DNA of 43,367 bases from positions 1 through 43,367 of the IMG/VR virus record IMGVR_UViG_2579778784_000007. One strand, 5' to 3'. The position numbers and the translations under genes are program-made. The notes under the pieces are model-generated. The model was not told the DNA's origin and made no database searches. It saw only the letters and a program-made list of their open reading frames with translations. Positions within the stretch are counted from its first letter, which is position 1. Every line of letters begins with the position of its first letter. Of the stretch, positions 1,331 through 41,561 are shown one piece after another. The DNA is from a virus. Its lineage: Duplodnaviria > Heunggongvirae > Uroviricota > Caudoviricetes.

Positions 1331-1345
1331 GCTTTTTTATACTAA
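1331..1345. other. attL: attL core (O) of lambda-type site-specific recombination
   Basis: GCTTTTTTATACTAA preceded by bacterial arm (TGAAGCCTGC) and followed by the lambda P' arm (GTTGGCATTATAAAAAAGCATTGCTTATCAATTTGTTGCAACGAACAGGTCACTATCAGTCAAAATAAAATCATTATTTG) containing arm-type Int sites. Confidence 0.92.
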
Positions 1346-1418
1346 GTTGGCATTATAAAAAAGCATTGCTTATCAATTTGTTGCAACGAACAGGTCACTA
1401 TCAGTCAAAATAAAATCA

Positions 1419-2489
1419 TTATTTGATTTCAATTTTGTCCCACTCCCTGCCTCTGTCATCACGATACTGTGATGCCATGGTGTCCGACTTATGCCCGAGA
1501 AGATGTTGAGCAAACTTATCGCTTATCTGCTTCTCATAGAGTCTTGCAGACAAACTGCGCAACTCGTGAAAGGTAGGCGGATCCCCTTCGAAGGAAAGAC
1601 CTGATGCTTTTCGTGCGCGCATAAAATACCTTGATACTGTGCCGGATGAAAGCGGTTCACGACGAGTAGATGCAATTATGGTTTCTCCGCCAAGAATCTC
1701 TTTGCATTTATCAAGTGTTTCCTTCATTGATATCCCGAGAGCATCAACATGCAATGTTGTAGGGATGGCAATTTTTACGCCCGTTTTGCTTTGCTCGACA
1801 TAAAGATATCCATCTACGATATCAGACCACTTCATTTCGCATAAATCACCAACTCGCTGCCCGGTAACAACAGCCAGTTCCATTGCAAGTCTTAGCCAAC
1901 ATGGTGATGATTCTGCTGCTTGATAAATTTTCAGGTATTCGTCAGCCGTAAGCCTTGATCTCCTTACCTCTGATTTTGCTGCGCGAGTGGCAGCGACCGG
2001 GTTTGTTGTTATATGGCCTTCAGCTATTGCCTCTCGGAATGCATCGCTCAGTGTTGATCTGATTAACTTGGCTGATGCCGCCTTGCCCTCGTCTATGTAT
2101 CCATTGAGCATTGCCGCAATTTCTTTTGTGGTGATGTCTTCAAGTGGAGCATCAGGCAGACCCCTCCTTATTGCTTTAATTTTGCTCATGTAATTTATGA
2201 GTGTCTTCTGCTTGATTCCTCTGCTGGCGAGTATTTTTTCGTAGCGATCAAGCCATGAATGTAACGTAACAGAATTATCACTGTTGATTCTTGCTGTCAG
2301 AGGCTTGTGTTTGTGTCCTGAGAATAACTCAATGTTTGCCTGTATTGCTTCAGTAATTGCTATCCTCCTGTCTCTGCCTAATCCGAACTCTTTACCCGTC
2401 CTTGGGTCCCTGTAGCAGTAATATCCATTGTTTCTTATATAAAGGTTAGGGGGTAAATCCCGGCGCTCATGACTTCGCCTTCTTCCCAT
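1419..2489 (-). CDS. int: Integrase (tyrosine recombinase), lambda Int
   Basis: 356-aa translation MGRRRSHERRDLPPNLYIRNNGYYCYRDPRTGKEF... matches my recollection of lambda Int essentially along its whole length; adjacent to attL P' arm. Confidence 0.97.
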   Translation of the reverse strand: MGRRRSHERRDLPPNLYIRNNGYYCYRDPRTGKEFGLGRDRRIAITEAIQANIELFSGHKHKPLTARINSDNSVTLHSWLDRYEKILASRGIKQKTLINYMSKIKAIRRGLPDAPLEDITTKEIAAMLNGYIDEGKAASAKLIRSTLSDAFREAIAEGHITTNPVAATRAAKSEVRRSRLTADEYLKIYQAAESSPCWLRLAMELAVVTGQRVGDLCEMKWSDIVDGYLYVEQSKTGVKIAIPTTLHVDALGISMKETLDKCKEILGGETIIASTRREPLSSGTVSRYFMRARKASGLSFEGDPPTFHELRSLSARLYEKQISDKFAQHLLGHKSDTMASQYRDDRGREWDKIEIK

Positions 2490-2685
2490 TTCTGATCCTC
2501 TTCAAAAGGCTACCTGTTATTGGTCGATTTAAGTCAACCTTTACCGCTGATTCGTGGAACAGATACTCTCTTCCATCCTTAACCGGAGGAGGGAATATCC
2601 TGCATTCGCGTACCCATCGACGAACTGTTTCAAGGCTTCTTGGGCGTCGCTGGCGTGCGTTCCACTCCTGAAGTGTCAAGTACAT
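2467..2685 (-). CDS. xis: Excisionase, lambda Xis
   Basis: 72-aa MYLTLQEWNARQRRPRSLETVRRWVRECRIFPPPVKDGREYLFHESAVKVDLNRP...; overlaps int start as in lambda. Confidence 0.95.
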   Translation of the reverse strand: MYLTLQEWNARQRRPRSLETVRRWVRECRIFPPPVKDGREYLFHESAVKVDLNRPITGSLLKRIRNGKKAKS

Positions 2686-2710
2686 CGCAAAGTCTCCGCA
2701 ATTACACGCA

Positions 2711-2734
2711 AGAAAAAACCGCCATCAGGCGGCT
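2711..2734 (-). terminator. Intrinsic terminator between the small ORF and xis (lambda tL3-like position)
   Basis: On minus strand: GCCGCC-tgat-GGCGG stem-loop followed by TTTTTTCTT, directly after the stop of the 55-aa ORF. Confidence 0.5.
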
Positions 2735-2892
2735 TGGTGTTCTTTCAGTTCTTCAATTCGAATATTGGTTACGTCTGCATGCGCTATCTGCGCCCATATC
2801 ATCCAGTGGTCATAGCAGTCATTGATGTTCTCTGCTTCGATAACTCTGTTGAATGGTTCTCCATTCCATGCACCTGTGACTCGGAAGTGCAT
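2725..2892 (-). CDS. Small hypothetical protein (55 aa), lambda orf55-like position
   Basis: Not in the supplied ORF track (<60 aa). ATG at 2892 preceded by GGAG; translation MHFRVTGAWNGEPFNRVIEAENINDCYDHWMIWAQIAHADVTNIRIEELKEHQAA; followed by terminator. Confidence 0.45.
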   Translation of the reverse strand: MHFRVTGAWNGEPFNRVIEAENINDCYDHWMIWAQIAHADVTNIRIEELKEHQAA

Positions 2893-3010
2893 TTATCATC
2901 TCCATAAAACAAAACCCGCCGTAGCGAGTTCAGATAAAAGAAATCCCCGCGAATGCGAGGATTGTTATTCATTGCTGATATTCACCCTTATCGCGAACAC
3001 CTTTACCGGT

Positions 3011-3253
3011 TTATCTCCTTTGCATGGCACGTAATTTTTTCAGATGGTTCTCCTGCTCTGTTTCAGCCAGGATCTGGTGATATTCTCTGTGATCAATGTG
3101 TTCGAATAAATTATTGAATTTTCTGATGCACACTCTTCCAGGATAGCCATCCATCCTCTTGAAGAACACTGAGTGATCAGTACTACGAATGATTTTTACT
3201 GGATAGCCAGCGCTATCGGTGTATATCTGACCACGTTGAATCAGAGAGAACAT
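3011..3253 (-). CDS. Hypothetical early-left protein
   Basis: 80-aa ORF in the leftward early operon; no recognisable motif. Confidence 0.5.
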   Translation of the reverse strand: MFSLIQRGQIYTDSAGYPVKIIRSTDHSVFFKRMDGYPGRVCIRKFNNLFEHIDHREYHQILAETEQENHLKKLRAMQRR

Positions 3254-3314
3254 TCGTTTATCCCCAGATAAAAATATAGCAATACCAATTACATAAAATA
3301 CTTCAGGCCAAGCA

Positions 3315-4265
3315 TCATTTCACCTCCTGCGGCGGTTCCGGTAGCGGCATCCAGTGAGTTGCTTGCTCAATACCATTACCCTGCTTAATCGTTGCATCTC
3401 CGCGCCGAAAGGTGCTTCCGGTATAGCGTGCGGAGCATATTAGCGGTTCAACCAGAGAGCTATCGAAATTCACTGAAATAAGCACGTTCTGGCCCTTTTC
3501 AGGCATTCGCTCACTACAGCTTATCCAACCATCCGGAGTTACCGGAGAGTTGCCGGGTTCTTTAATGTGCAAGCGAGGCTCACCATCTTTTGGCTCAGGC
3601 CACTGGCGCTCCATGTTGATCTTCAATTTATCTTCCATAGCAGCGGTAATTTCAGCATCGCTGATGCCAGCACGGCGCTGTGCATCCCACAACAGAAACT
3701 GCATATCAGCCCACTCGCTAAGATCGTCTGGTTCGGCTGCGGCTTCCAGTGCCTCTTTTGAGAGATGTTTCAGCGGGCCAACTGGACCAACACAGCCAAA
3801 CGTCTTATCTGACCATTCAGCATGGCGCTGCCGGATTAAATTGCGCAATTGAAGCGATGATCCGTTCTCCTCTGACAACTCTTCATGATTACTTGCAGGT
3901 TCGACACCCTGAAGCATGGCGGCGCGGCAGGCATTCCAGCCTCTCACCTCTGCAATAGCGGCAACAGCATCGACCGCGTACATTTTAAGAGGGTTGGGCA
4001 TTGGTTTTTCTTCAGGTACTACTGGCATTGGAGGGGCGGCGTATACTTCAATAATCCCATTATCAATAGGCCATTCTCCATCCTTGAGGTAGTCACTTGT
4101 GCCGTCAACTTGCTGTTTTGCAATGTGGAATGCACCTATTGGTTTTGCTTCCAGTGATGCCAGTGCAATTTCATAAGCACGGCGCTCAATATTGTCTCGA
4201 ACGTCCAGGCTGCCTATGCGCTCTTTGATTTCTTTAATCAGTTCTTTGTCGGTGAAAGTTGTCAT
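3315..4265 (-). CDS. Hypothetical protein with C-terminal DUF551-like domain
   Basis: 316-aa ORF; C-terminal segment ...WISCSERMPEKGQNVLI...ATHWMPLPEPP resembles the DUF551 domain common in enterobacterial prophage early regions; GAGGA SD 7 nt upstream. Confidence 0.6.
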   Translation of the reverse strand: MTTFTDKELIKEIKERIGSLDVRDNIERRAYEIALASLEAKPIGAFHIAKQQVDGTSDYLKDGEWPIDNGIIEVYAAPPMPVVPEEKPMPNPLKMYAVDAVAAIAEVRGWNACRAAMLQGVEPASNHEELSEENGSSLQLRNLIRQRHAEWSDKTFGCVGPVGPLKHLSKEALEAAAEPDDLSEWADMQFLLWDAQRRAGISDAEITAAMEDKLKINMERQWPEPKDGEPRLHIKEPGNSPVTPDGWISCSERMPEKGQNVLISVNFDSSLVEPLICSARYTGSTFRRGDATIKQGNGIEQATHWMPLPEPPQEVK

Positions 4266-4268
4266 ATG

Positions 4269-4556
4269 TTAGTCCTCATCCACTTCAACGCCATCTTTCA
4301 GCGTGATGCCGTGCCAATCATCAGCCCAACTGGTTAGCCCTGGCGCATCAATGCTAGGCATATAGACGCTTGCAGTGTGGTAGCCCTTATCGTTATCAAT
4401 GCTGGCAACGTGCTCGCCGTTGTATGCGCTCAGCGTGTCCAGGACGCTATAAAACTTTCCTCCGGCTGCCCTGAAATCCTTTACAGCCTTCACAAGGCGA
4501 TTCCACGCTTTTTCCTGTTCTGGCGTCAGGTCGATTAATTCCTGCAAAGTTGCCAT
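4269..4556 (-). CDS. Hypothetical protein (start moved to internal ATG)
   Basis: ORF-track ORF 4269..4655 overlaps the upstream gene by ~100 bp; ATG at 4556 has GGAGAG SD and an ATGA overlap with the upstream stop, giving 95 aa beginning MATLQELIDL. Confidence 0.5.
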   Translation of the reverse strand: MATLQELIDLTPEQEKAWNRLVKAVKDFRAAGGKFYSVLDTLSAYNGEHVASIDNDKGYHTASVYMPSIDAPGLTSWADDWHGITLKDGVEVDED

Positions 4557-4557
4557 A

Positions 4558-5097
4558 TCACTCTCCTTTGATGCGAATGCCAGCTGCGCTTGCTGATTCT
4601 TCATATGCGCGTTTAGCAGCGTTAAGGATTGCTGCCAGTGGCGTATAGCCGCCATCCATTCGGATTGTGTTGTGGATGCCAGCCATTGTGTCGCGCAATT
4701 TGCTGTGGCTAGCAGACAGTTCTGCTATGCACTTCTCTGCGGCTTCCAGCTCAACACGCAGTTTCCCTACCGTTAGCGCAATATCCTCGTTCTCCTGATC
4801 GCGGCGTTTTATGTATTGCTGGTTTCTTTCCCGTTCATCCAGCAGCGCCAGCACAGTAGCTGGACTGGCTGCGGCGATGAATTCAGCATTGGCCTGCTGT
4901 TCCATTTGGAAATCTTCATCGAAACCGCTTTCTGGATGCGCTCCTTCAATTCTGCAAATTGGAATATATCCAGCAGCCTCGCGATGAATTAGTGCATCAT
5001 CACCATCAAATCGGCCCTCTCCATATTCGAGCGACCACACACCACACGTTGCTTTCTCTGCCTTTTCACGCAGTACCTGATAGTCAATCTTGCTCAC
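4558..5097 (-). CDS. Hypothetical early-left protein
   Basis: 179-aa ORF, translationally coupled to neighbours; no confident family assignment. Confidence 0.55.
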   Translation of the reverse strand: MSKIDYQVLREKAEKATCGVWSLEYGEGRFDGDDALIHREAAGYIPICRIEGAHPESGFDEDFQMEQQANAEFIAAASPATVLALLDERERNQQYIKRRDQENEDIALTVGKLRVELEAAEKCIAELSASHSKLRDTMAGIHNTIRMDGGYTPLAAILNAAKRAYEESASAAGIRIKGE

Positions 5098-5492
5098 TGG
5101 CTGCCTCCTTTGCGAAGCTGGGCGGCTAACTCGTCACATATGTGCGTCAAAGAGCAAAGTTTGATTGATGGGTGTTCGCGCATCATCTCAACCCCCTGCG
5201 CCCGTACTTCAGCCAGGAAAGCGTCGGTGGCCGGGGTTTTGCAGGACATTTGAATTGCCTTCTCTGTGTATAAAACACCCGTTCGATTGGCGGTATACAT
5301 GATGGTGTTTACAGCATCTTGATGTGCTGATTTCACAGCCTCAACTTCAGCAGCCAGCGCCGCGCACTTGGCCTCCGCTTCAGCAAATTTACGCACCAGA
5401 TATTCAGCGTTTGTTTCGTTAACCTTTAAATCTCGTGGGATGCATTTGCCTTTCAGAAAACCATCCATCTCAATTAGTGTCATTTGTTTCAT
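5094..5492 (-). CDS. Hypothetical early-left protein
   Basis: 132-aa ORF; start overlaps upstream small ORF stop (ATGA). Confidence 0.55.
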
Positions 5493-5654
5493 TTCTTACC
5501 ACTCCGCCACATCGCATTCAGATATTTGTTTTGATTCACTGATGGAAAAGAATTTCTCTTAAGCAATTCCTCTCTCGATGGCATTGGCTTTACGCGTTGG
5601 CGAATAATCATTTCTGCCGGAAGAATGCCGGGATTGTATGCAAGTCCTCTCATG
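5489..5654 (-). CDS. Small hypothetical protein (54 aa)
   Basis: Not in ORF track. ATG at 5654 with AAAGAGGAA SD; [54 protein letters not shown]; stop overlaps next start. Confidence 0.35.
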
Positions 5655-5669
5655 GTAAATTCCTCTTTG

Positions 5670-5984
5670 TTAATTTATTCGTATGCCTGCTCTTTCTTCA
5701 TCGAGTTTTTTTAGCTTGTATCGCATAGCTCTTACTGAATAAATTGAGCGGCAGGTTGCAATTGCTATTTCTTCTGCGGAGAACTTACCGAAAAGTGATA
5801 CTTCGGCTCTTGTCCAGCGTCTTCCACGAAGTCGGCTAACAATGTCAGCTCCAATCCTTGTTGCTTTCGCCATTACTGCTTTTTCAGTCCTTTCCAGTTT
5901 TTCAGCGATAACTTCAACTGGCATTGTCGCCGCCACTTCGCGCAAGAAATCGACTTCCCATTTCTCCCATGGAGTCTTTTTCAT
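5670..5984 (-). CDS. Hypothetical protein, possible DNA-binding
   Basis: 104-aa ORF with two internally similar W-containing helical segments; function unknown. Confidence 0.5.
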
Positions 5985-5995
5985 AGGCGATACCG

Positions 5996-6478
5996 TTATT
6001 TGATAAGAAGTGAAGGTTTCCCAACTTTGAGTTGAGCGCCGGGGATATTTATTCCTGCTTTTAGTTGGTGTTTGATTGCCAGTTTGTCGGCTTTAATTGT
6101 CGTTTCAAACTCAACGTATTCAGGAGGAAGGGCGCTTGAGTCGATTATTTCTACAATTTCTGACGGTTTGCGGATTGTTACCTGGTGAATACCTGCTCGG
6201 ATATTTTTCTTGCCAACCATTTCAAGCGATGACGCTATATATGATTTGATGCTGTCAATCTTATTTTGAATTACTGCGGCTCGCTCATTCAGTGACTTTG
6301 CCTCTTCCTTGAGGCGTTCGGCATAACCAGATTCATTTTTAATGACGGAAAGTAGTTGCTCTATTTTATCGGTAAATTCTCCTTCCATACCTTCTATTGT
6401 GTCAGCAATCATCTCTGGTTCTAAATCTGAATCCATCAATTTTGCGTATTCATTGGCTATTTCATACAGTTTGCTCAC
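5996..6478 (-). CDS. Gp157-family protein (recombination-associated; putative host nuclease inhibitor)
   Basis: Acidic helical protein immediately downstream of recT, as is typical for Gp157-family genes. ORF-track start (6484) is TTG abutting the SD; GTG at 6478 lies 6 nt after GGAGG. Confidence 0.55.
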   Translation of the reverse strand: MSKLYEIANEYAKLMDSDLEPEMIADTIEGMEGEFTDKIEQLLSVIKNESGYAERLKEEAKSLNERAAVIQNKIDSIKSYIASSLEMVGKKNIRAGIHQVTIRKPSEIVEIIDSSALPPEYVEFETTIKADKLAIKHQLKAGINIPGAQLKVGKPSLLIK

Positions 6479-7373
6479 TGGCAACCTCCAGTTTCGCTTT
6501 GCATTCTATGTAAATGGCTTGTACGTTCTGCTGCAATTTCATTCCAGATGTCAGGCGATATGCTTCTGCAAAATATCGCTTCAAATCATCCATGTTTTCT
6601 GCCTGAGCCATTTCATCACAAAGAAGTTGTGCTTTATCCATTATTTCCTGCTGGCGTTTCCGTTCATCTTCGCGGATATCTTCCTCTGATTTGTGCGGCA
6701 TAACTGGTTCAGTCCACACACCTTCTTCTTCGTTTAGTACGTGAATAGCACTATCAAGACGTGATGCCTTAGGCCAATACTTGCTTGCACGCTTTACGAC
6801 CGTCTTTCGCGCCATCTCATTCCAGTGATTTACCCATGGTCCTTTATCGCTGAATGCTGCCTTGCTTGTTTTCCTTACAGCCTCAATTTCAGCCAGACTC
6901 ATCTCTTCCGTTAGATAATCACCTGCTGGCGTCTTAACTGTGCAGTAAACGCCAACAATATCACCACGATCACCGAAGGCGTTGTATTTATGGGTTGGTG
7001 CTTTATCAAGCCCGTTTGACTCATAGGTATCGTTAGCATGAACAAGTTTTGCCTGACCCCATGAGATAACACCAGACTCCATTGCAATATGGAGCAATCC
7101 CATATAACTGATATCAAGGCAAACCATGCCGTCGCGCGGAACCAGATAAGCCAGTTTGCTGGCCGGGTTTAAGGTGATGCCGATCGCCGCAACATTGATG
7201 ATGGCGTTCTGTGCACTGGTTGGATTTGCCAGTGCTGTTTTAGCCAGGTAATCATTTTTCTGGAAATACTGAATTGCAAACTGGCTTTCCTTAGCCCATG
7301 TCACCGTCTGTTCAGTCAATGCTCCGCAGAATAACTGCTCCTGCTGTTTAACGAATTCAACGATATTGCTCAT
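6462..7373 (-). CDS. recT: RecT-family single-strand annealing recombinase
   Basis: 303 aa; segment GPWVNHWNEMARKTVVKRASKYWP parallels the conserved RecT motif (GPWVTHWEEMAKKTAIRRLFKYLP in E. coli RecT); occupies the position of lambda bet. Confidence 0.8.
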   Translation of the reverse strand: MSNIVEFVKQQEQLFCGALTEQTVTWAKESQFAIQYFQKNDYLAKTALANPTSAQNAIINVAAIGITLNPASKLAYLVPRDGMVCLDISYMGLLHIAMESGVISWGQAKLVHANDTYESNGLDKAPTHKYNAFGDRGDIVGVYCTVKTPAGDYLTEEMSLAEIEAVRKTSKAAFSDKGPWVNHWNEMARKTVVKRASKYWPKASRLDSAIHVLNEEEGVWTEPVMPHKSEEDIREDERKRQQEIMDKAQLLCDEMAQAENMDDLKRYFAEAYRLTSGMKLQQNVQAIYIECKAKLEVASEQTV

Positions 7374-7681
7374 GCTGCTTCTCCATAAATGTGTCTGCGT
7401 TTGAATATTGCGAAGGCATATTCAGCCTTAACTCTTTCGGTTATTGCATCCCAGAACCATTCAGCGGCTTTTTCCTGATAGTTACAGTCATCATCTTCCA
7501 GCCAGTCGATAGCGTCCTTAGTGTGTTCATCTGGTTTATATGAGCGAAGCATTTCGCTTATTGGGTCGCAACGTTTGCAGAGGCGATCAACTTCACTGTT
7601 AATTCGTTCGTAATCTTCATCAGTAAAACTTGCGATTATTTGCGATATTTCACGCTTATCATTCAGAGTCAGAATCATCAT
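7370..7681 (-). CDS. Hypothetical early-left protein
   Basis: 103-aa ORF, AGGAG SD, ATGA coupling to recT. Confidence 0.5.
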   Translation of the reverse strand: MMILTLNDKREISQIIASFTDEDYERINSEVDRLCKRCDPISEMLRSYKPDEHTKDAIDWLEDDDCNYQEKAAEWFWDAITERVKAEYAFAIFKRRHIYGEAA

Positions 7682-7763
7682 CTTTCTCCTGTTCTTTGTG
7701 CTGATTGAGCATTTTGTTCATCTGACGAATGAATTCTTCGTCTGACCAGTTATCTGTAAAACT

Positions 7764-8034: not shown

Positions 8035-8100
8035 GGGTAACTCCTTCTGTTTGATTGCATAACGAAAATGCCTCGAGTGAAGCGTTATTGGTATGCATAT

Positions 8101-8699: not shown

Positions 8700-8707
8700 A
8701 TCTCACC

Positions 8708-9425: not shown

Positions 9426-9436
9426 TTTGGAGTGCA

Positions 9437-35388: not shown

Positions 35389-35874
35389 TTATCTAATGTT
35401 GCTGCTACTGTTGCATGTGACGGTATTTCCAAATCCTGAATTGCAGTTTGTATAGGTGTCAACACGCGTTGGGTAAGGTTGAGTTATAACAGGCTGTCTC
35501 GCTTTTTGCTCGATCGCTTGCATTGTGTTTACAGCCTGATAATTCAATAAAGCCTGCTGGAATGCTTGGCTTTGTGCTATTTGTTGGGCTTGTTCTTGGC
35601 TTTGTAATTGAACATAAAGATTCTGAAGCTCAAGTCTTGCCTGTGCGTCACTTATCTTGCCTTCATCGACACCTTGCCCGAGCATCTTCGCAGCAAGGAC
35701 ATACAGCTTAGGTGTTGGTGCTGATGCCATGCGTGAGTCGTTCTTCACGCTGGCATCAAGGCAATTAGCCATATCACTAAGCTTTGGATAGCGTTGTTCG
35801 CAACTTGCCTGATAGTCGCTTACTTTTGCGCACCCAGCCAGCAGAAGCGGGATAATTAACAGTGATTTTTTCAT
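35389..35874 (-). CDS. Predicted lipoprotein (candidate superinfection-exclusion factor)
   Basis: 161 aa; signal peptide with lipobox LLAGC; AAGGAGAG SD; encoded antisense to the virion genes in the position of P22 sieA. Confidence 0.7.
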   Translation of the reverse strand: MKKSLLIIPLLLAGCAKVSDYQASCEQRYPKLSDMANCLDASVKNDSRMASAPTPKLYVLAAKMLGQGVDEGKISDAQARLELQNLYVQLQSQEQAQQIAQSQAFQQALLNYQAVNTMQAIEQKARQPVITQPYPTRVDTYTNCNSGFGNTVTCNSSSNIR

Positions 35875-35931
35875 ATAATTAACTCTCCTTAGTTTTGTGC
35901 ATGACGAAATTAACCAGCCATCAGGCTGGTA

Positions 35932-36114
35932 TTAGTCACATTCTATTTCTTTTGTCGACGTCCATACATAAGGGTCTGAGCAAACAACCTCTCCATTTAT
36001 CATGACGTCATAGCCCATTAGATATGAGTTACCACCAACAATCTGAGCGGCGATGACGCTAATGCTGGCGGCGCAGGCTGCACCAAAAACGAAACCAATT
36101 AATATATTTTTCAT
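35932..36114 (-). CDS. Small predicted membrane/secreted protein (60 aa)
   Basis: N-terminal hydrophobic segment [23 protein letters not shown]; immediately upstream of the lipoprotein gene on the same strand; weak SD. Confidence 0.45.
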
Positions 36115-36145
36115 TTTGATTCCAAATAGTTATAGGATGAAAGTT

Positions 36146-36331
36146 ATGACCATAGAAGAACGCCTGAACAACATTGAGTTGAATCAAACCCTGCTTGACC
36201 AGCGACTTTCAGATCTTGAGCTTAAAGATTTGGATGCGCAAATATTAGAAGCAGAGGCCAAGCTCTCCAGCTTAAACCACCGCAAGAAGCAAATCCGCAA
36301 CAGAATTACTCAGGGACGCGGAAGCTGTTGA
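36146..36331 (+). CDS. Hypothetical coiled-coil protein (61 aa)
   Basis: ATG 36146 with AGGA 8 nt upstream; overlaps by 26 bp the 3' end of the minus-strand ORF 36306..36515, so one of the two may be spurious. Confidence 0.3.
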   Translation: MTIEERLNNIELNQTLLDQRLSDLELKDLDAQILEAEAKLSSLNHRKKQIRNRITQGRGSC

Positions 36332-36515
36332 GGTGGGATGCTAGGTCTCTATCGTTAAAATCAAGGCTGCTAATCATTTCATTGTAAATAGCGTTTTTAT
36401 CTTCCATTGGCAGTCTTGAGTAAACCAGACACAGAGCATATTTCAGGGAGTTTAGCTCTTTCTCTAGCTCTTCCTTGCTTGATGTTTTTGACTTAATAAA
36501 CTGTTTTTTATTCAT
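36306..36515 (-). CDS. Hypothetical protein downstream of mnt
   Basis: 69-aa ORF coupled (ATGA-type) to the Mnt-like gene. Confidence 0.4.
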   Translation of the reverse strand: MNKKQFIKSKTSSKEELEKELNSLKYALCLVYSRLPMEDKNAIYNEMISSLDFNDRDLASHLNSFRVPE

Positions 36516-36748
36516 TTTGCATCCTTACCATACATGGTTTTCAGTGTTTCAATCAGCGCATCCCTGAATTTGTCAGCCTCTTTCTGAGCAAATTCATTGC
36601 TATTAAGCGATCTACCACAAACAGCATCTTCGATAATCTGTATTATTTCAGCATTCATGGAACGCTTGTTATGTTGCGCCCTGGCTTTAACCTTTGCCTT
36701 TAACTCTTTGGAAATCCTGATATTTATTTGCGGCTCTTCGCGTGACAT
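36512..36748 (-). CDS. mnt: Mnt-like ribbon-helix-helix repressor
   Basis: EPQINIRISKELKAKVKARAQHNKRSMNAEIIQIIEDAV parallels P22 Mnt DPHFNFRMPMEVREKLKFRAEANGRSMNSELLQIVQDAL; divergent from arc-ant. Confidence 0.75.
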   Translation of the reverse strand: MSREEPQINIRISKELKAKVKARAQHNKRSMNAEIIQIIEDAVCGRSLNSNEFAQKEADKFRDALIETLKTMYGKDAK

Positions 36749-36801
36749 ACCACCTCCATAGCATTTTGGTGATATTACTATTGCATCACTGCGATTACAA
36801 T

Positions 36802-36818
36802 GGTATAACGGTTATACC
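36802..36818. promoter_or_regulatory. 17-bp perfect palindromic operator between mnt and arc
   Basis: GGTATAACgGTTATACC in the 88-bp divergent intergenic region. Confidence 0.6.
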
Positions 36819-36836
36819 AAATTGATTGGAGGTAAT

Positions 36837-37010
36837 ATGATAGTCAAGTCAGACGCACCAAAGTACCCTTTGCGCATCCCATTAGAGGTTAAGTTAGCAA
36901 TCGAGAAGTCAGCGAAAGAAAATGGTCGCTCAATAAATACCGAGATGGTAATGCGGTTAGTGGATAGTTTAAGGCGGGATAGTTCTAAAGGTAATCTAGC
37001 AAAAAGTTGA
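36837..37010 (+). CDS. arc: Arc-like ribbon-helix-helix repressor
   Basis: 57 aa from ATG 36837 (GGAGG SD); PKYPLRIPLEVKLAIEKSAKENGRSINTEMVMRLV parallels P22 Arc PQFNLRWPREVLDLVRKVAEENGRSVNSEIYQRVM. Confidence 0.75.
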   Translation: MIVKSDAPKYPLRIPLEVKLAIEKSAKENGRSINTEMVMRLVDSLRRDSSKGNLAKS

Positions 37011-37072
37011 AGCCCCAACTGCGGTAACAGTCAGGGCTTCGTTATCAACAAATCGGCTTAGGAAATATTGAC

Positions 37073-37951
37073 ATGAAAAGTATAGCAAAGGCACAAAACG
37101 ATTTCACCATCTTCAAATTCGGCGACAGTGAAATCCGCGTCATCAACAAGTGCGGTGAGCCGTGGTTTGTAGCTAAAGATGTTTGTGATGCTTTAGCTTT
37201 GACTAACTCACGCAAGGCGCTTACTGCACTTGATGACGATGAAAAGGGAGTAACTTTAAGTTACACCCTTGGTGGTGAGCAGAATCTAAGCATTGTTAGC
37301 GAATCAGGTATGTATACATTGGTTCTGCGCTGCCGCGATGCTGTCAATAAAGGTTCGGTCCCGCACAAATTCCGCAAGTGGGTAACAGCAGAAGTTCTAC
37401 CTTCAATTCGCAAACATGGCGAGTATGTGAAAGGCAAGAAAACCACTGTTGAGGAAAGAACGCCGCTACGCGATGCAGTAAACATGCTGGTAGGAAAGAA
37501 AGGACTTCGCTATGACGATGCATACAATATGGTTCATCAGCGTTTTGGTATTGACAGCATTGATGAACTTTCAATTGAACAAATCCCGCTTGCCGTAGAG
37601 TACATCCACAGGGTAGTGCTTGAAGGTGAGTTCATTGGCAAACAAGAGAAGAAGACCAACGAGCTTTCTGCAAAAGAAGCAAACAGTCTTGTATGGTTAT
37701 GGGATTATGCCAACCGTTCACAGGCATTATTCCGCGAACTGTATCCGGCATTAAAACAAATTCAATCGAACTATTCCGGCAGATGCTACGACTACGGTCA
37801 TGAATTCTCGTATGTTATCGGAATGGCGAGAGACGTTTTAATAAACCACACACGAGATGTTGATATTAATGAGCCAGACGGACCAGCGAATCTTTCCGCA
37901 TGGATGAGACTTAAGAATAAAGAATTACCTCCTTCAGTACATAACTACTGA
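37073..37951 (+). CDS. ant: Antirepressor Ant (Bro-N domain)
   Basis: 292 aa; N-terminal Bro-N-like domain ([28 protein letters not shown]...); downstream of arc as in P22 immI. Confidence 0.82.
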
Positions 37952-37970
37952 CAGATAACCAACGCAACGA

Positions 37971-37993
37971 CCCAGCTTCGGCTGGGTTTTTTT
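37971..37993 (+). terminator. Intrinsic terminator after ant
   Basis: CCCAGC-ttcg-GCTGGG followed by TTTTTTT. Confidence 0.65.
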
Positions 37994-38061
37994 ATGCCCA
38001 AAATTCACCGTAGCCACGCTGCGGCGATTCCTTGTATCTGGAGCAAATTAAATGACAGACA

Positions 38062-38562
38062 TTACCTACTCAACAGATGGTCAGCAACCATGTTTGCTGC
38101 CTTATAAGCTATAGCCGCTTCATCAATGGTGTTGAATCTCCCAAGGGTTATGTTTTTACCTGAGACATTTATCTGAGCTTGCCATTGATTTCTGGCTTGA
38201 CAGAAAGTTACCCCCTTGATTCCAGCATTGCTATTTCGAGGTCCGACATTTAATGCATTTACGACTCTGCTGACATCCCTAAGGTTTGAGATTGCGTTAT
38301 TTCTTCTGTTTCTATCAATGTGGTCAATCTCTTGTTTGGGCCATTCGCCATATACATACAGCCAGGCAAGTCTATGTGCAAAATATCTTACGCCATCAAT
38401 ATTAATTGCGTTATATCCATAAGAAATTGTGCCAGCAACTTTCCCAACAGCACCTCTGGCGCTTAATTTCTTTTTCCAAGTGAAAATTCCTGTTTCTTTA
38501 TTGTAATCGAGAACCTCCATAAGGCGCTCCCGAGTTACTACCTCGTGACGTCTCTTACTCAT
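38062..38562 (-). CDS. HNH homing endonuclease with AP2-like domain (copy 2)
   Basis: 166 aa from ATG 38562 (GGAG SD; ORF-track start 38604); HNH motif [19 protein letters not shown]; [13 protein letters not shown] segment parallels copy 1; encoded antisense at the tailspike 5' end. Confidence 0.7.
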
Positions 38563-38575
38563 TATTTTCTCCGGA

Positions 38576-41059
38576 ATGTTTATTATGCCAGAACAATTAT
38601 ACAACGTAGTTGTTTCACAACCAAGTCAGTTATTTACTTTAGCTCGCTCGTTTAAAGCAAATGCCAATGGCAAAATTTATATCGGTAAAATTGACACTGA
38701 CCCGGTAAATCCAGAAAACCAGATTCAGGTTTATGTAGAGAACGAAGACGGCTCTCACGTTCCTGTTTCGCAACCAATCATCATTAACGCTGCCGGATAT
38801 CCGGTATATAACGGACAGATTGCCAAATTCGTTACCGTGCAAGGCCATTCTATGGCTGTTTATGATGCGTATGGTGCGCAGCAGTTTTATTTTCCCAATG
38901 TGCTGAAGTATGACCCCGATCAGCTACGGCAGCAATTAGAAGATCCAGATGGCGCTAAAAAATATCCTGAGTTGCAGATAGCACGATGGAGAGATTGTGG
39001 AGATGTTAGAGGTTGGGGAGCAAAAATAGATGGGGTAACAGATGATTCAGATGCTTTTATTAAAGCTTTAAACTCTGGAAGGTCGGTTATAACAATTCCT
39101 GAAGGAATATGCATCATCAAGAAGAATATTAACATTCCTGAAGGGTGTTCACTGGTTGGATCTGGCATTGATTATTGGGATACATATAGACCAGCGCCTG
39201 AAAGATTATTAAAAAGTTGGAGTAAAGGAACCCATCTTGTATTTACTGGTGATGGAGAAAAAAACAAATATTTTTTTAACATCTCTAATGAAAGACCGGT
39301 TAAAATTGTTGAAGGGATATCTTGTAAGTTCACTGAGTTTACGAATGAAGATTCTGTAGGTGTTACTCCTGCTACACCAAAAGCCATGAGCGTAGCTGTT
39401 AGTATCAACAGGGCATCACAGTTACGCAATCTGAGAATAATGGTAAGTAAAAATGGTATTGAAGGATACAATAACCCTGATTCTTATTCATTGGGTGATA
39501 ACTGGGATATAGGGTTGCATGTATACGATAGCTGTGATTCAGTTATTGATAACGTACAGATTGTCGGCTATTGGAGGGTAAAAGGACTACTACTGACAGA
39601 AAATGACGGGAGCCTTTCAATGAAGGGAAATCCTGAAAAAACGCACTTTAATAACGTTTATGTACAGTCAGGAATCGCGATAAGGAATAGCCCTCAGATT
39701 GATCTTGTAAGTAATACTGAAAGCTCAGTGACATTTAAACATAAAAAGTCGATGAGAATAACTTCAGTTAAACAGTTTAAAATTGCTGGCAGTGAATCAG
39801 TATATACGTATTCAGATGCATCATTTGATGGAACTAATATCACACTATCTGGTATTTCTCCTGAAATACAAGGTTCAATAAGTGTAATCAGGTTTCCGTC
39901 AATTGGTAATAATTTTAGTGGGACTGTTTTTGAGAATACAGTAGCCACTACTCTTGATCATACATCAGGTAAGCCATCAGAATACTTTGGCCTTCCTGCA
40001 TCCTTTGCATTAGAGATTGATGGTTTCCCTGTTCGTAATTTAAGGCTTGATAAATTCAAAGCTCAAACTACCTTTGATAAAGGAAATTGCATTTTTGGTG
40101 ATTGCCGTGATGTTAAAATCACATCATCTGAGTTTGAAAATGGAATTATGATTGCGTATAACCTGACCGAGACTCAGGGTTATACAGGAAATCTTAGATT
40201 TTTTGCTTCTGATCTTCAGAGCAGCGTTAACACAAGCGAGTTTAAACCAAGAGACGCATTTGTAGACAATAGACAAATAAAAACGGAGTTTACTGATGGT
40301 TCTTTCATTATAAAGAACTGGAGGCCTACAGATACAAAAATACAATGGTCGTCTGGAGTGGATGCTATTGTTCTTAGAGAGTCACCTGACGAACAATCAA
40401 ACGGAAATATTTACGGGTATCACATTGATGGTAAAAGATGGATTAATGTTAGTGGATATAACAAAGATATAAATATTTCATCAAGAAACTTAAGCGTAAA
40501 AAACCATAGTGATGACTCCGCAGTTATTAATATATTCGGCGACTCTGGAAATATTGCCATTAAAGGTAATTTTTCACCAATTGTTGATAACAGCAAATCT
40601 CTTGGTGCACCATCATTTAGATGGGCTCAGATTTATTCTGCATCTGGGACTATAAGCACATCAGATGAAACACTTAAAACAATATATGACATTACTCAGG
40701 CAGAGCGTGATGCTGCGCTGGAAATAAAGGGAATTATATGCAAGTTCAGGTTTAATGAGTCGATTAATTTTAAAGGATTGGAGTTATCAAGGTATCATTT
40801 TGGAGTTGGCGCTCAAACCGTAGGGGATATTCTTAGAAAGCATGGTTTAAACCCTGAGCAATATGCTTTTTGGTGTTACGATGAATGGCCAGACGTATGG
40901 GATGAAGAGGTGATAACTGAAGAGAGCACAGATCCTGATACAGGTGAGAAAATTTATTCTCAATATAAAACAGGAAATATGATTCTTGTAAAAAAAGCAG
41001 GTGGACGCTACGGAATTCGTTATGACGAATTGGCTATGTTTATATTAATGGCAATGTAG
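38576..41059 (+). CDS. Tailspike: P22 gp9-like N-terminal head-binding domain, divergent central receptor-binding domain, C-terminal intramolecular chaperone (S74-like) domain
   Basis: N-terminus [53 protein letters not shown]...[12 protein letters not shown]...VLKYDPDQ aligns with P22 gp9 residues ~7..120; C-terminal ~130 aa resemble the auto-cleaving chaperone domain of endosialidase/K5 lyase/T5 fibre, with an S-x4-K dyad at SDETLK (Ser codon 40661..40663). Confidence 0.88.
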
Positions 41060-41078
41060 TTGCAATAAATGCAGTATA

Positions 41079-41107
41079 TCCCGCATGAAAACTGCGGGAT
41101 TGTTTTT
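41079..41107 (+). terminator. Intrinsic terminator after the tailspike gene
   Basis: TCCCGCA-tgaaaac-TGCGGGA followed by TTGTTTTTA. Confidence 0.6.
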
Positions 41108-41358
41108 ATCTAGTGTATTTGTGAGTTTTAAATAAAATTTGGTATGGATTCTTGCATCGTAGTGAACGCAGGATTACCTATGAAACAAAACTGAGACACA
41201 CAAAGCTTTGCACTGGATTGCAAGGCTTTGTGTCATTCGATAGTTAAGGTGGATCACTCCACCTTTTCATCAAGACAATCCGCCCACCACTGCATCATGT
41301 CTCTGCGATTATCGAGATACTGAGCATGGTTGTAAATTCAACTAACCCAGTGAGTTGG

Positions 41359-41400
41359 CAAAAAATTAGCGCAAGAGGACAAAAAATCACCTTGCGCTAA
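41359..41400 (-). terminator. sib: sib/tI-like hairpin terminator in the attP P arm (retroregulation element of int)
   Basis: 10-bp stem TTAGCGCAAG / CTTGCGCTAA with T-tract on the minus strand; surrounding sequence resembles the lambda P arm, including arm-type Int sites (CAGGTCACTAAT, AGTGACTGG). Confidence 0.5.
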
Positions 41401-41546
41401 TGCTCTGTTACAGGTCACTAATGCCATCTAAGTGTTTGATTCATAGTGACTGGATATGTTGTGATTTGTAGCATTATGCAGTCTATTTTTTAGACTAAAG
41501 ATATTATAACACATTGATATTAATGGTTTTTAATGTTTCATGTTCA

Positions 41547-41561
41547 GCTTTTTTATACTAA
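41547..41561. other. attR: attR core (O)
   Basis: GCTTTTTTATACTAA followed by bacterial B' arm CTTGAGCGAAACGGGAAGG; identical core to attL. Confidence 0.92.

Follow-up and report, generated by a model that had tools for sequence, protein, structure and literature searches.

Integration site and early-left genes

The window (the whole stretch of DNA analysed, 43,367 nucleotides) contains a 40,216-bp element at 1331-41561 with exactly defined ends, which agree with the coordinates given in the earlier note. Two copies, and no more, of the 15-bp lambda att core, GCTTTTTTATACTAA, are present in the window, at 1331-1345 and 41547-41561, against an expectation of zero. The first copy, the same as the lambda att core, forms attL (the B-O-P' junction). 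The second closes attR (41356-41561), where alignment revealed a lambda-type P arm that is 84.8% identical to lambda 27534-27742 and retains both arm sites, P1 and P2. The element is flanked by the host genes ybhC (1-1284) and ybhB (41652-42128), with bioA beyond the latter, and the insertion site is the phage lambda attachment site of the Escherichia coli chromosome. Between the att cores lie approximately 62 uninterrupted genes in canonical lambdoid order. These boundaries, the gene content, the intact reading frames and the similarities of each module were observed directly.

The leftmost genes, on the minus strand, encode a lambda-type tyrosine integrase (1419-2489; Pfam Phage_integrase and lambda Arm-DNA-bind_1) with 99% amino acid identity to lambda Int and 100% to that of phages Huey and 720R6, followed by an excisionase (2467-2685; Pfam Exc; 97% to lambda Xis). 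The DNA of int, xis and the P' side of att shares 97.6% identity with lambda. An earlier note on this DNA had called int, xis and att lambda-like, and these values and the retained arm sites bear that out. Int, Xis and host factors would recombine the identical 15-bp cores.

Next on the same strand is a set of accessory 'ea' genes (2725-5984; Pfam and PHROG), namely orf55, DUF4222, a dATP/dGTP pyrophosphohydrolase-DUF551 fusion, orf95, an Ead/Ea22-like gene, orf132, DUF2737 and orf104. This is the most finely mosaic part of the element. In lambda, the 'ea' genes are dispensable. The fusion and the Ea22-like gene are recombinant or truncated in appearance, and homologous stretches in the prophage of E. 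coli ECE170 are marked partial by PGAP. They are followed, also on the minus strand, by genes for a Sipho_Gp157 family protein (5996-6478; PF05565) and a RecT single-strand annealing protein (6462-7373; PF03837, E 4e-32), by orf103 and by kil and cIII (7763-8034; Pfam Lambda_Kil and cIII), a block with 98% nucleotide identity to phage Kapi1. RecT is 98-99% identical in amino acids to its counterparts in Kapi1 and 683R2 and had no match in lambda, P22 or Sf6. Pfam and PHROG searches detected no exonuclease family in any early-left ORF, which agrees with the original description of RecT plus a Gp157-like gene and no exonuclease partner. Recombination would then use RecT, Gp157, NinB and RusA, without a phage exonuclease.

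Regulation, replication and lysis

The lambda-type N antiterminator gene (8708-9034, minus; Pfam N36) encodes a protein with 91% amino acid identity to lambda N. Upstream of it, within 9233-9332 on the minus strand, are the nutL boxB (9233-9247) and a pL-like promoter (9304-9332) placed by scan and sequence. The boxB of nutL and that of nutR (11521-11535) are exact lambda sequences, so that N and the nut sites are lambda-like as proposed, and a lambda-type N would act at nut sites of the lambda type to antiterminate the transcripts from pL and pR.

The cI repressor (10509-11162, minus; Pfam HTH_3 and Peptidase_S24) is 100% identical to those of 683R2, 720R6 and phi458. Its C-terminal half (10495-10919) matches lambda at 93.6% identity, in line with the lambda-like C-domain described earlier, but the whole protein reaches only 71% and the N-terminal half is not lambda-like. 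Lysogeny would be held by this LexA-like cI, which combines a lambda-like cleavage/oligomerisation half with a non-lambda DNA-binding half. At the position of rexAB, orf348 (9437-10483, minus) encodes a 348-aa single-pass membrane protein; it lies on the strand of cI, begins 25 nt past the stop of that gene, and is followed by a terminator (9405-9428). It is 100% identical in amino acids to phi458 Orf11, is missing from 683R2 and 720R6 despite their identical cI, and had no match in Pfam, PADLOC, NCBIfam or the PDB. Rightward, the cro gene (XRE-type HTH, 71 aa; Pfam HTH_3) and the nutR boxB (together 11280-11535, plus) precede a cII-family activator of the Sf6/P22 c1 type (11615-11893, plus; Pfam Phage_CII). 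The latter had been labelled lambda-like, a label contradicted by its amino acid identities of 99% to Sf6, 86% to P22 c1 and 53% to lambda.

The replication genes, both on the plus strand, encode an O-like initiator (12076-13032; phrog_345; 92% amino acid identity to Sf6 gp43) and a phage-encoded DnaB-type replicative helicase (13022-14458; Pfam DnaB and DnaB_C). The origin lies inside the O-like gene and consists of three 66-bp units (12461-12658), each with three copies of TTGTCCAACGG, which is one unit more than in Sf6 gp43. Helicase identities of 99% to Sf6 gp44 and 31% to P22 gp12 place it, judged by sequence, in the Sf6/HK022 type, and the entire stretch 11484-14533 (cII, orf53, O and helicase) is 98.8-99.1% identical in nucleotides to Sf6. 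Replication had been described as P22-type, which is accurate for the presence of an O-like initiator and a DnaB-like helicase but not for the helicase sequence. The initiator would bind the nine iterons in its own gene and recruit the helicase. The nin region (14535-17277, plus; Pfam) comprises ninB, Dam, ninE, orf133, ninF, orf70, YbcO, RusA and ninH, with the Dam methyltransferase (14972-15499, plus; Pfam) 98% identical in amino acids to that of Sf6. Both ninB and ninH had been considered lambda-like; this applies to ninB (99%) but not to ninH (only 54%).

The Q antiterminator (17274-17792, plus; PDB 6jnx and 6p18, E ~1e-91) is of the phage 21 type, with 85% amino acid identity to phage 21 Q and 98% to both Sf6 gp59 and CUS-3; of the earlier designation '21/82-type', only the first half is retained. 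The late region was read against phage 21, in which QBE, SDPE, pinholin and SAR endolysin are annotated. The late promoter pR' (17770-17799, plus; promoter match 11/12), the top promoter match in a scan of the window, has a direct repeat ATTAGCCA/TTTAGCCA between -35 and -10, placed where the annotation of phage 21 has the Q21 binding element (QBE reference description, bioRxiv 10.1101/651190). Phage 21 has other Q-binding repeats, ATTGAGCA/AATGAGCA. Immediately after the -10 element, HNH cassette 1 (17800-18504, plus) is inserted and splits the 21-like late leader. The cassette brings a leader of its own with a -10-like TATGCT, a pause element, a terminator (17840-17866) and a gene for an HNH_3+AP2 endonuclease (17987-18499, plus; Pfam); it is missing from Sf6, 683R2, CUS-3 and 720R6 and found in ECE170 and HK629. 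Downstream, alignment and RNA folding identified the orphaned 21/Sf6-type late leader with its tR' terminator (18500-18550, plus), now promoterless, whose hairpin (-20.7 kcal/mol) is the same as in phage 21. The late leader had been attributed to lambda; pR', the Q-binding repeats and the leader are instead phage 21/Sf6-like, and lambda-like sequence near it is confined to 18739-18986, just upstream of the holin. A phage-21-type Q would load at pR' and read through the two terminators flanking the inserted HNH gene, although we only assume this late-gene control because the HNH cassette has replaced the initial transcribed region.

The lysis cassette (18991-20103, plus; Pfam) encodes a 67-aa holin with two transmembrane domains (18991-19194), a SAR endolysin (19172-19669; PDB 3hde, 3hdf and 4zpu, E ~1e-106) and Rz (19666-20103) with an embedded Rz1 (19865-20050). 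Salmonella phage Emek has the same cassette at 97.6% identity, and PS34 and BTP1 carry it too. The proposed pinholin/SAR lysis stands as regards the endolysin, which is of the phage 21 type (94% to R21), but the holin showed no similarity to S21 in the comparison with phage 21. Because it is no S21 homologue, a pinholin mechanism is putative. Lysis would involve this small holin, the SAR endolysin and an Rz/Rz1 spanin.

Virion genes, immI and tailspike

The rightward genes continue with a KilA-N protein and a DUF2560 protein (20306-21335, plus; Pfam), followed by the small (Sf6_terminase family) and large (Terminase_3) terminase subunits (21415-23252, plus; Pfam). TerS is 91% and TerL 100% identical in amino acids to Sf6, the TerL figure applying to the 96% of its length that aligned. 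Head genes of the CUS-3 procapsid and completion type (portal, scaffold, coat, orf62, gp4 and gp10; 23254-29808, plus; Pfam and PHROG) come next, and 21752-30037 is 95.8% identical in nucleotides to CUS-3. The portal is 100% identical to CUS-3, 56% to Sf6 and 35% to P22; the coat protein is 95% identical to CUS-3 and 29% to P22, with no match to Sf6. The virion had been read as Sf6/P22-type, and the genes are indeed P22-like with an Sf6-type terminase, but the procapsid subtype is that of CUS-3. Sf6 packages its DNA by headful (PMC5630979). The Sf6-type terminase of the element would presumably also package by headful, filling a CUS-3-type T=7 head; we infer this, as we do viability and every activity, from sequence.

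Also on the plus strand are the tail needle with an Sf6-type knob (PF16532, E 5e-108) and a gp14 homologue (DUF2824), together at 29808-31240, and the ejection proteins gp7, gp20 and gp16 (31215-35386; Pfam and PHROG), with the gp16 part closest to CurroJimenez, 611R6 and HK620 (95-97% nucleotide identity). At the sieA position, orf161 (35389-35874, minus) encodes a predicted lipoprotein with a LAGC lipobox; it gave no alignment with P22 SieA and is 99% identical in amino acids in 720R6 and ECE170. A P22-type immI region follows (35932-37951, both strands; Pfam Arc, Bro-N and P22_AR_C), with orf60, orf69, Mnt-like (36512-36748, minus), Arc (36837-37010, plus; Pfam Arc), the sar antisense RNA (37005-37071, minus; Rfam sar, 70.1 bits) and the Ant antirepressor (37073-37951, plus; Pfam Bro-N and P22_AR_C). 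It is 98.6% identical in nucleotides to Kapi1 and would provide a second layer of lysogeny (mnt, arc, sar and ant) backing cI. HNH cassette 2 (HNH_3+AP2; 38062-38562, minus; Pfam) appears as an alignment gap against CUS-3, an insertion of approximately 530 bp at 38066-38632, and its protein is 41% identical in amino acids to HNH1. The first reading had missed this second HNH cassette as well as the immI region with its sar RNA, Dam, and orf348 next to cI.

The tailspike (38585-41059, plus; Pfam) has a P22-type head-binding domain, a divergent receptor-binding part and a weak C-terminal match to the Peptidase_S74 chaperone. The sole match of the receptor-binding part among phage records was Phi05_1387 B (97.7% over 57%); the protein is 99% identical in amino acids in ECE170. 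For adsorption and injection the phage would rely on a tail machine of the P22 type, its needle ending in an Sf6-type knob, and on a tailspike whose ancestry is separate.

Relatives and mosaic ancestry

With CUS-3 (CP000711; P22-like, from E. coli K1) the element shares TerL through gp10 (TerL 100%, scaffold 99% and gp4 99% in amino acids, besides portal and coat), Q, ninB, YbcO, RusA, ninH and Rz/Rz1, and its genome length is nearly that of CUS-3 (40,207 bp). CUS-3 differs in its integrase and site, Erf recombinase, immunity, helicase type (32%), lambda-type S/R lysis, N-terminal TerS, needle, gp14, gp20, gp16, ant and endosialidase tailspike, and lacks HNH cassettes. Sf6 (NC_005344) shares cII, orf53, O, helicase, Dam, Q, the terminase, gp10 and the needle-knob family, but has another integrase, Erf recombination, 434-type immunity, lambda-type lysis, a more distant portal, a coat without detectable similarity, and another tailspike and conversion genes. 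Huey (PQ850609), an isolated phage, and vB_EcoP-720R6 (ON470605), whose record carries the ybhB/bioA flank, are both P22-like, with Xis 97-99% and CUS-3-type head genes 98-100% identical in amino acids to those here. Additionally, 720R6 has the same cI/cro immunity (100%), and Huey has N, orf156, cII, O and helicase in common. Both differ in Erf/Abc2-type recombination (RecT/Gp157 here), lambda-type S/R lysis and tailspike receptor-binding domains, and neither has HNH cassettes or orf348.

Lambda (NC_001416) has in common with it int, xis, att, orf55, N, the boxB of both nut sites, the C-terminal half of cI, ninB, ninE and the stretch upstream of the holin, but the element lacks lambda Red, rexAB, O/P, Q, S/R, cos, and head and tail genes. 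Phage 21 (OL657228) is similar in Q, in the SAR endolysin and in how pR', the direct-repeat Q-binding site, the sigma-dependent pause element and the terminator are arranged. It has no HNH cassette after the -10, and no tRNA genes follow tR' in the window, unlike in phage 21; its remaining parts are unrelated or just lambda-like. Two siphoviruses with lambda-like heads and tails and otherwise different modules share single segments, namely HK629 (NC_019711; identical arrangement of Q, pR', HNH1 cassette and orphan leader, 98.4% nucleotide identity) and phi458 (OP434518; identical cI and orf348 pair, 99.6%).

We consider it very probable that the element is one apparently intact temperate P22-like phage genome (a Lederbergvirus-like podovirus of the CUS-3 procapsid subtype), which a lambda-type Int integrated into the lambda attachment site. 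That it might be a defective or cryptic remnant, complete only in appearance, is suggested by the two early-left accessory ORFs that seem to be fusions or truncations and by the HNH cassette interrupting the late leader. We deem this unlikely, as all essential P22-like and lambdoid genes are full length and 95-100% identical to those of the plaque-forming Huey, Kapi1, CUS-3 and Sf6, both att sites are intact, the genome size is close to that of CUS-3, and the viable HK629 has the same HNH-in-leader arrangement.

The closest relative overall is the prophage of E. coli ECE170 (NZ_CP196906) at the same site, with 69% coverage at >=95% identity. It shares the left arm (1-8096, 99.8%), the nin-Q-HNH1-lysis-KilA-N stretch (15481-20990, 99.7%), the head genes, orf161, the tailspike and also a TnpB gene in the host flank, but has other immunity (cI 35%), other replication genes (helicase 32%, no O match), another ninB, no Dam, another gp16 and a reduced immI without ant or HNH2. 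Kapi1 (vB_EcoP_Kapi1, MT813197; PMC8787464) shares the Gp157-to-cIII block, the head genes and immI-HNH2-tailspike N-terminus (98.6%) but sits at argW with another integrase, and has other immunity, replication genes and Q, its own lambda-type lysis and another tailspike receptor-binding part. These two genomes bear on the prospect of an assembly chimera, in which the assembly linked reads from at least two lambdoid prophages of one strain where they share boundary sequences. Lambdoid prophages do have near-identical stretches of 100-500 bp in common, at which short-read assemblers can switch, and the exact combination occurs in no database genome. However, 1-8096 and 15481-20990 are contiguous in the finished ECE170 genome, as are 21409-30115 and 35885-38925 in Kapi1; each gene is present in a single set without duplications, no reading frame is broken, and both att cores lie in the host flanks where they are expected. 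A chimera is, accordingly, very improbable.

An intact P22-like prophage could also be a copy of one already described phage, since single modules are 95-100% identical to named phages. This seems hardly credible. DNA painting gave at least 45 segments with differing best donors among eight phages, and the best single phage covered 50% of the element at any identity (Huey 50%, 720R6 49%, Kapi1 47%, Sf6 34%, P22 16% and lambda 11%). None of 50,697 phage records and none of 5,426 complete E. coli genomes covered 80% of either half; the best genomes, strain 317 for the left half (74%) and ECE170 for the right (75%), were different strains. The central claim of the earlier note, a mosaic lambdoid prophage at attB-lambda not colinear with one described phage, is therefore upheld, even if about one third of its module ancestries were mis-assigned (cII, ninH, late leader, replication sequence type, '82-type' Q, holin and virion subtype).

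Of 79 junction clusters, 52% lay within 30 bp of a gene boundary, where random positions gave 14%. A strong terminator (13 were considered) lay within 75 bp of 14% of the clusters but of only 5% of random positions (p ~0.001). Junctions had been said to coincide with HNH genes and terminators. They bound both HNH cassettes and are enriched at terminators, but only some lie near the latter. The patchwork arose as is usual in lambdoid phages, by exchange of modules at gene boundaries and conserved boundary sequences, to which two discrete insertions of HNH genes were added. The suggestion that this combination at attB-lambda is especially informative was not sustained, given that Huey and 720R6 are P22-like with lambda int/xis (97-100% in amino acids) and that at least 9 of the 15 best-matching complete E. 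coli genomes have P22-like structural genes contiguous with the same ybhB/bioA flank. Pervasive mosaicism is the textbook state of this group of phages (discussed in PMC10883804 and PMC10408124). The patchwork ancestry of this prophage is thus real yet normal for lambdoid phages, and the databases already contain P22-like phages that carry a lambda int.

Boundaries, gene content and mosaicism of the prophage

The lambda att core GCTTTTTTATACTAA was found in exactly two exact copies in the window, at 1331-1345 and 41547-41561, when none is expected by chance, and these copies mark the limits (1331-41561) that an earlier note, made from the sequence alone, had proposed for the element. The same 15-bp core is carried by both prophage ends, with gal-side ybhC (1-1284) in the left host flank and bio-side ybhB (41652-42128) in the right one. 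Subtraction of one core gives a unit genome of 40,216 bp, compared with 40,207 bp for phage CUS-3. The integration module is lambda-like, as the note had held: Int and Xis (Pfam families Arm-DNA-bind_1, Phage_integrase, and Exc) are 99% and 97% identical to those of lambda at the amino acid level, and alignment with lambda revealed that the arm-type Int sites P1 (CAGGTCACTAAT) and P2 (CATAGTGACTG) are kept in the P arm, which lies upstream of the right core and is 84.8% identical to lambda overall. The right host flank also holds a TnpB/InsQ-family gene (42237-43367, + strand) that runs past the end of the window. This gene for an RNA-guided endonuclease sits between ybhB and bioA, is so annotated in E. 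coli ECE170 (a strain with an unnamed prophage at the same site), and is missing from the equivalent host flank in the record of vB_EcoP-720R6 (hereafter 720R6).

About 62 genes were called from the ORF list on the basis of start codon and Shine-Dalgarno context and related annotation, and were scanned with Pfam, PHROGs, PADLOC, and NCBIfam; for ten unknown proteins NCBIfam gave nothing above cutoff. The gene order is canonical lambdoid. The leftward genes (- strand, 1419-11162) are int, xis, an "ea" block, Gp157, RecT, kil, cIII, orf156 (beside N), N, orf348 (beside cI), and cI. The rightward genes (+ strand, 11280-35386) start with cro, cII, an O-like initiator, and a DnaB-like helicase, followed by the nin region (ninB, Dam methylase, ninE, ninF, YbcO, RusA, ninH), by Q, an HNH gene, holin, endolysin, Rz/Rz1, KilA-N, and DUF2560, and by TerS, TerL, portal, scaffold, coat, gp4, gp10, needle, gp14, gp7, gp20, and gp16. 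At the right end (35389-41059) lie a lipoprotein gene (- strand), the immI block with the sar RNA, a second HNH gene (- strand), and the tailspike gene. None of the essential genes is interrupted, and matches to related proteins are full-length.

Megablast was used to compare both halves with phage records (50,697) and with complete genomes of E. coli (5,426), using a criterion of 80% coverage. In neither collection was a single phage or genome colinear with at least 80% of either half. The best phage records were 683R2 for the left half (53%) and vB_EcoP_Kapi1 (Kapi1) for the right half (66%), and the best complete genomes were those of strain 317 (74% of the left half and 59% of the right) and ECE170 (68% and 75%). 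Next to this, the prophage was painted by local blastn with lambda, P22, Sf6, Kapi1, 683R2, phi458, Huey, 720R6, CUS-3, phage 21, and the ECE170 prophage. At any identity, 1331-41561 was covered to 50% by Huey, 49% by 720R6, 47% by Kapi1, 44% by 683R2, 34% by Sf6, 16% by P22, 12% by phi458, and 11% by lambda, and to 69% by the ECE170 prophage. At 95% identity or higher, Huey, 720R6, and Kapi1 covered 39%, 46%, and 40%, these values being coverage by blastn matches and not intergenomic similarity. The map of best donors changes label at least 45 times. Colinearity with one described phage, which the earlier note had named as the result that would speak against its reading, can therefore be rejected, since no record reached 80% coverage and the best phage covers 50%; the highly mosaic prophage described in that note is real.

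We defined junctions as clustered ends of blastn matches with identities of 88% or higher and lengths of 150 bp or more, which yielded 79 positions. Of these, 52% are no more than 30 bp from the start or stop of a gene, compared with 14% of random positions. For 14%, compared with 5% of random positions (p about 0.001), one of 13 strong intrinsic terminators is no more than 75 bp away. A junction was found near seven of the 13 terminators, including a tL2-like (8107-8124), a tR2-like (14487-14510), and one after Rz, and each of the two HNH cassettes is delimited by junctions. The proposed coincidence of junctions with HNH genes and terminators thus has statistical support, with gene boundaries as the dominant rule.

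The further suggestion that such a combination at attB-lambda would be especially informative found no support. The isolated phage Huey and the prophage record 720R6, which includes a flank with ybhB and bioA, are both P22-like with lambda Int/Xis at 97-100% amino acid identity, and among the 15 complete E. coli genomes that match best, nine or more have P22-like structural genes contiguous with the same host flank. Every module is 88-100% identical to one in some record and, judged by these comparisons, the combination of modules is not unusual. The element, apparently intact, is a P22-like prophage at attB-lambda that belongs to the CUS-3 subtype; its mosaicism is ordinary, and it is a new combination of known modules. 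The overall picture drawn in the earlier note stands, with several of its module labels in need of correction.

Recombination, regulation and replication genes

The early-left region encodes a RecT single-strand annealing protein (PF03837) and a Sipho_Gp157 protein. Pfam, PHROG, and PADLOC detected no exonuclease of the lambda Exo/YqaJ or RecE families beside RecT in any ORF of 2725-8699, and tblastn against the exo genes of lambda and phage 21 gave no matches, in line with the reading of RecT plus a Gp157-like gene with no visible exonuclease partner. A two-component recombinase of the Red or RecET kind was accordingly rejected: the annealase is present, and an adjacent 5'-3' exonuclease was not detected by these searches. 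The Erf/Abc system of P22, which has no exonuclease of its own and uses modified host RecBCD, provides a precedent for an annealase that lacks a phage nuclease. Kapi1 and 683R2 share the Gp157-RecT block at 98% identity, and genes annotated as RecT are also present in Louie, Dewey, HK140, and Gally; going by these matches, the block is a common module and not peculiar to this prophage. Gp157 carries the PHROG label "Mu Gam-like end protection" (Mu Gam / Ku-like), for which structure comparison gave no confirmation, and a literature search on a Gp157-RecT module found nothing relevant. Two nearby genes on the - strand have unusual structures. At 3315-4265, a DUF551-like N-terminal fragment is joined to dATP/dGTP pyrophosphohydrolase and DUF551, resembling an in-frame recombinant fusion, and at 4558-5097 an Ea22-like gene without its usual C-terminus appears truncated. 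The stretches homologous to both in ECE170 were flagged as partial by PGAP.

The regulatory region is a mixture of ancestries and not plain lambda. N and its nut sites are lambda-like as proposed (N is 91% identical, and both boxB sequences are exactly those of lambda), and so is the C-terminal domain of cI. The repressor is a hybrid: DNA of the C-terminal half (10495-10919) is 93.6% identical to lambda, the whole protein just 71%. The protein is 100% identical in 683R2, 720R6, and phi458, so that its immunity specificity is theirs, and cro, encoding an XRE-type HTH protein, is common to the same three. The lambda-like label for cII was wrong, as this protein is 53% identical to that of lambda, compared with 99% to Sf6 and 86% to P22 c1.

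In the position of rexAB lies orf348 (9437-10483, - strand), encoding a 348-aa single-pass membrane protein. It shares the strand of cI, starting 25 nt past the cI stop, and the terminator of the immunity region (9405-9428) comes after it. Relative to 683R2 and 720R6, both of which have an identical cI, orf348 is a clean insertion of 1.09 kb; it is identical in phage phi458. No matches were found in Pfam, PADLOC, NCBIfam, or PDB. One transmembrane helix is predicted, and a moderate AF2 model contains an OB-like C-terminal barrel. The family comprises 56 clusters, exclusively from Enterobacterales and each annotated "hypothetical", and homologues in Enterobacter, Lelliottia, and Xenorhabdus lie at prophage ends, adjoining int or tail-fibre genes. 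From this distribution, the family appears always to occupy "moron" positions, in Enterobacterales prophages only. These positions, the co-orientation with cI, the membrane helix, and the OB-like barrel make a role in exclusion or defence plausible. That the orf348 product is expressed from the prophage and works in exclusion or abortive infection, as a functional analogue of rexAB, is a tentative idea that we consider rather unlikely to be correct.

Replication had been called P22-type, which is right for the architecture of initiator plus DnaB-type helicase and wrong for the sequence type, which is Sf6/HK022, as the helicase shows 99% identity to Sf6 gp44 compared with 31% to P22 gp12. A predicted origin inside the O gene (12461-12658) consists of three tandem 66-bp units with three TTGTCCAACGG iterons apiece. 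The Sf6 origin has one 66-bp unit fewer, so the extra unit here amounts to an in-frame duplication of 22 aa in the initiator. Identity to lambda in the nin region falls from 99% for ninB and 93% for ninE to 87% over 75% of the length for ninF and 54% for ninH; of the three genes labelled lambda-like (ninB/F/H), the label therefore fits ninB, fits ninF in part, and fails for ninH. An ORF in this region (14972-15499, + strand) was considered as an HNH gene and rejected, as it encodes a Dam-family N6-adenine methyltransferase. Among the compared reference phages it is shared by Sf6 alone (98% amino acid identity), and PADLOC scores its product as an orphan methyltransferase.

Late promoter, HNH cassettes and lysis

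Q matches the solved Q21 structures (PDB 6jnx and 6p18, E about 1e-91), and its amino acid identity to Q of phage 21 is 85%. The 21-type half of the earlier 21/82-type label is thus confirmed and no 82-type label is needed, Q82 being a family separate from Q21. The late promoter pR' (17770-17799) is the top promoter match in the window. Between its -35 and -10 elements lies a direct repeat, ATTAGCCA/TTTAGCCA (17780-17795), whose halves are putative Q-binding subsites. Two Q-binding subsites are annotated at the matching promoter position in the phage 21 record, with a repeat sequence that differs from the one here. According to Yin et al., the Q-binding element (QBE) comprises two 8-bp subsites in direct repeat; the template of their loaded complex covered promoter positions -40 to -1 only (bioRxiv 10.1101/651190). 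The phage 21-type layout is present, with the repeat between -35 and -10, a -10-like putative pause element just after the start site, and then a terminator.

Directly after the -10 element, 705 bp (17800-18504, the HNH1 cassette) diverge from Sf6, 683R2, CUS-3, and phage 21. The leader of this inserted piece contains a -10-like TATGCT located 7 nt after CATAAT, a spacing equal to that of the pause element TAAGCT in Sf6, followed by a terminator that belongs to the cassette (17840-17866) and then, at 17987-18499, by a gene for an endonuclease of the HNH_3+AP2 type. At 18500-18550, the leader and tR' hairpin of the original 21/Sf6 type persist and are now promoterless. The identical arrangement of late promoter, HNH cassette, and orphan leader is found at 98.4% identity in the published phage HK629, so the arrangement is compatible with viability. 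A second, smaller possibility, next to that raised for orf348, is that the HNH1 cassette acts as a homing element whose target is the start of transcription at late promoters of the 21 type, and that the substitute pause element and terminator which it carries let Q control survive the insertion. The late leader had been called lambda-like. This was incorrect, since the lambda-like part is limited to 18739-18986, which matches lambda 44936-45181, the stretch just upstream of S. ARAGORN found no tRNA gene in the window; such genes follow tR' in phage 21, Sf6, and Kapi1, and other sequence occupies their place here.

The second HNH cassette (HNH2, 38066-38632; gene at 38062-38562, - strand) also encodes an HNH+AP2 endonuclease, 41% identical to that of HNH1 at the amino acid level. 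Compared with CUS-3, it adds about 530 bp between the ant terminator and the tailspike start, and it is shared with Kapi1.

The lysis module had been described as of pinholin/SAR type, and the SAR part is secure: the endolysin is 94% identical to the SAR endolysin of phage 21 at the amino acid level, matches PDB 3hde, 3hdf, and 4zpu from end to end, and carries a Gly/Ala-rich N-terminal anchor. The 67-aa holin has no detectable similarity to the S21 pinholin (zero tblastn matches to phage 21 at E <= 0.01). Its top Pfam family is Phage_holin_2_3 (HP1 type), and its score against the P21 holin family is below threshold (19.5 bits, cutoff 26). Pinholins of the phage 21 kind have two transmembrane domains (TMDs), the first of them releasable and rich in Gly/Ala, and make small holes that do no more than depolarise the membrane. 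The single hydrophobic stretch of 29 residues in the present holin might be two TMDs, and the protein probably has two; together with the adjacent SAR endolysin, this makes it reasonable to infer that it acts as a pinholin. The entire lysis cassette recurs with 97.6% identity in Emek, a P22-like phage of Salmonella, and is also found in PS34, BTP1, and a Klebsiella phage.

Virion, packaging and the right end

The P22-family portal, coat, gp4, gp10, needle, gp14, gp7, gp20, and gp16 genes occur in P22 order (Pfam P22_portal, P22_CoatProtein, P22_Tail-4, Phage_stabilise, Phage_tail_NK, DUF2824, and P22_gp7; gp20 and gp16 by PHROG). The region 21752-30037 has 95.8% DNA identity to CUS-3. Portal, scaffold, and coat proteins are 100%, 99%, and 95% identical to those of CUS-3, compared with 35%, no match, and 29% for P22, and with 56%, 33%, and no match for Sf6. 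On these identities, the virion is of the P22-like family, of Lederbergvirus type, with the CUS-3 procapsid subtype. The Sf6/P22 label given earlier is therefore right for the family and for the terminase, and wrong for the procapsid. TerS and TerL (PF20901 and PF04466) are 91% and 100% identical to those of Sf6 at the amino acid level. Since Sf6 is a headful packager (PMC5630979), headful packaging is the expected mode here, by homology of the terminase. The needle bears an Sf6 knob. The gp7, gp20, and gp16 genes are mosaic in their turn, with the gp16 portion nearest to CurroJimenez, 611R6, and HK620, which agrees with the published view that E-proteins count among the regions of P22-like phages with the most variation and mosaicism (PMC10883804).

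Downstream of the ejection genes, in the position of sieA, lies orf161 (35389-35874, - strand), whose product of 161 aa is predicted to be a lipoprotein (lipobox LAGC). Homology of orf161 to SieA was rejected, as the two proteins do not align and differ in kind, SieA being polytopic and located in the inner membrane (PMC10883804). The orf161 product is 99% identical in 720R6 and ECE170 and is a candidate for a prophage-expressed surface or exclusion factor. The immI region (mnt, arc, sar RNA, ant) is located between the ejection genes and the tailspike. Its block of orf60, orf69, mnt-like, arc, and ant genes, between the lipoprotein gene and HNH2, includes two Arc-family genes and a Bro-N/P22_AR_C antirepressor, and the sar antisense RNA (37005-37071, 70.1 bits) was the sole Rfam match in the whole window.

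The tailspike starts with the P22 head-binding domain (PF09008, E 2e-64, residues 1-113). For the receptor-binding part (38926-41195), the sole close match among phage records is the partial prophage record Phi05_1387 B (97.7% over 57%); the tailspike is 99% identical in the ECE170 prophage. At the DNA level, the receptor-binding part is distantly similar (67%) to a "head binding protein" gene of phage SD2, which is 149 kb in size, and Pfam gave weak matches to Peptidase_S74, the C-terminal chaperone of endosialidase.

The prophage is thus one further combination drawn from the well-documented pool of lambdoid and P22-like modules, and its value lies mostly in cataloguing and, in practice, in correct annotation. 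The proper label is a P22-like phage of the CUS-3 type that carries lambda Int, a Q and a SAR endolysin of the 21 type, and an Sf6-type terminase. Two side leads emerge from it, namely the membrane protein orf348, presumably cotranscribed with cI, and the HNH cassette that replaces the leader of the late promoter. Here again, the sites of exchange were gene boundaries and conserved boundary sequences with terminators, and free-standing HNH genes served as a further route.
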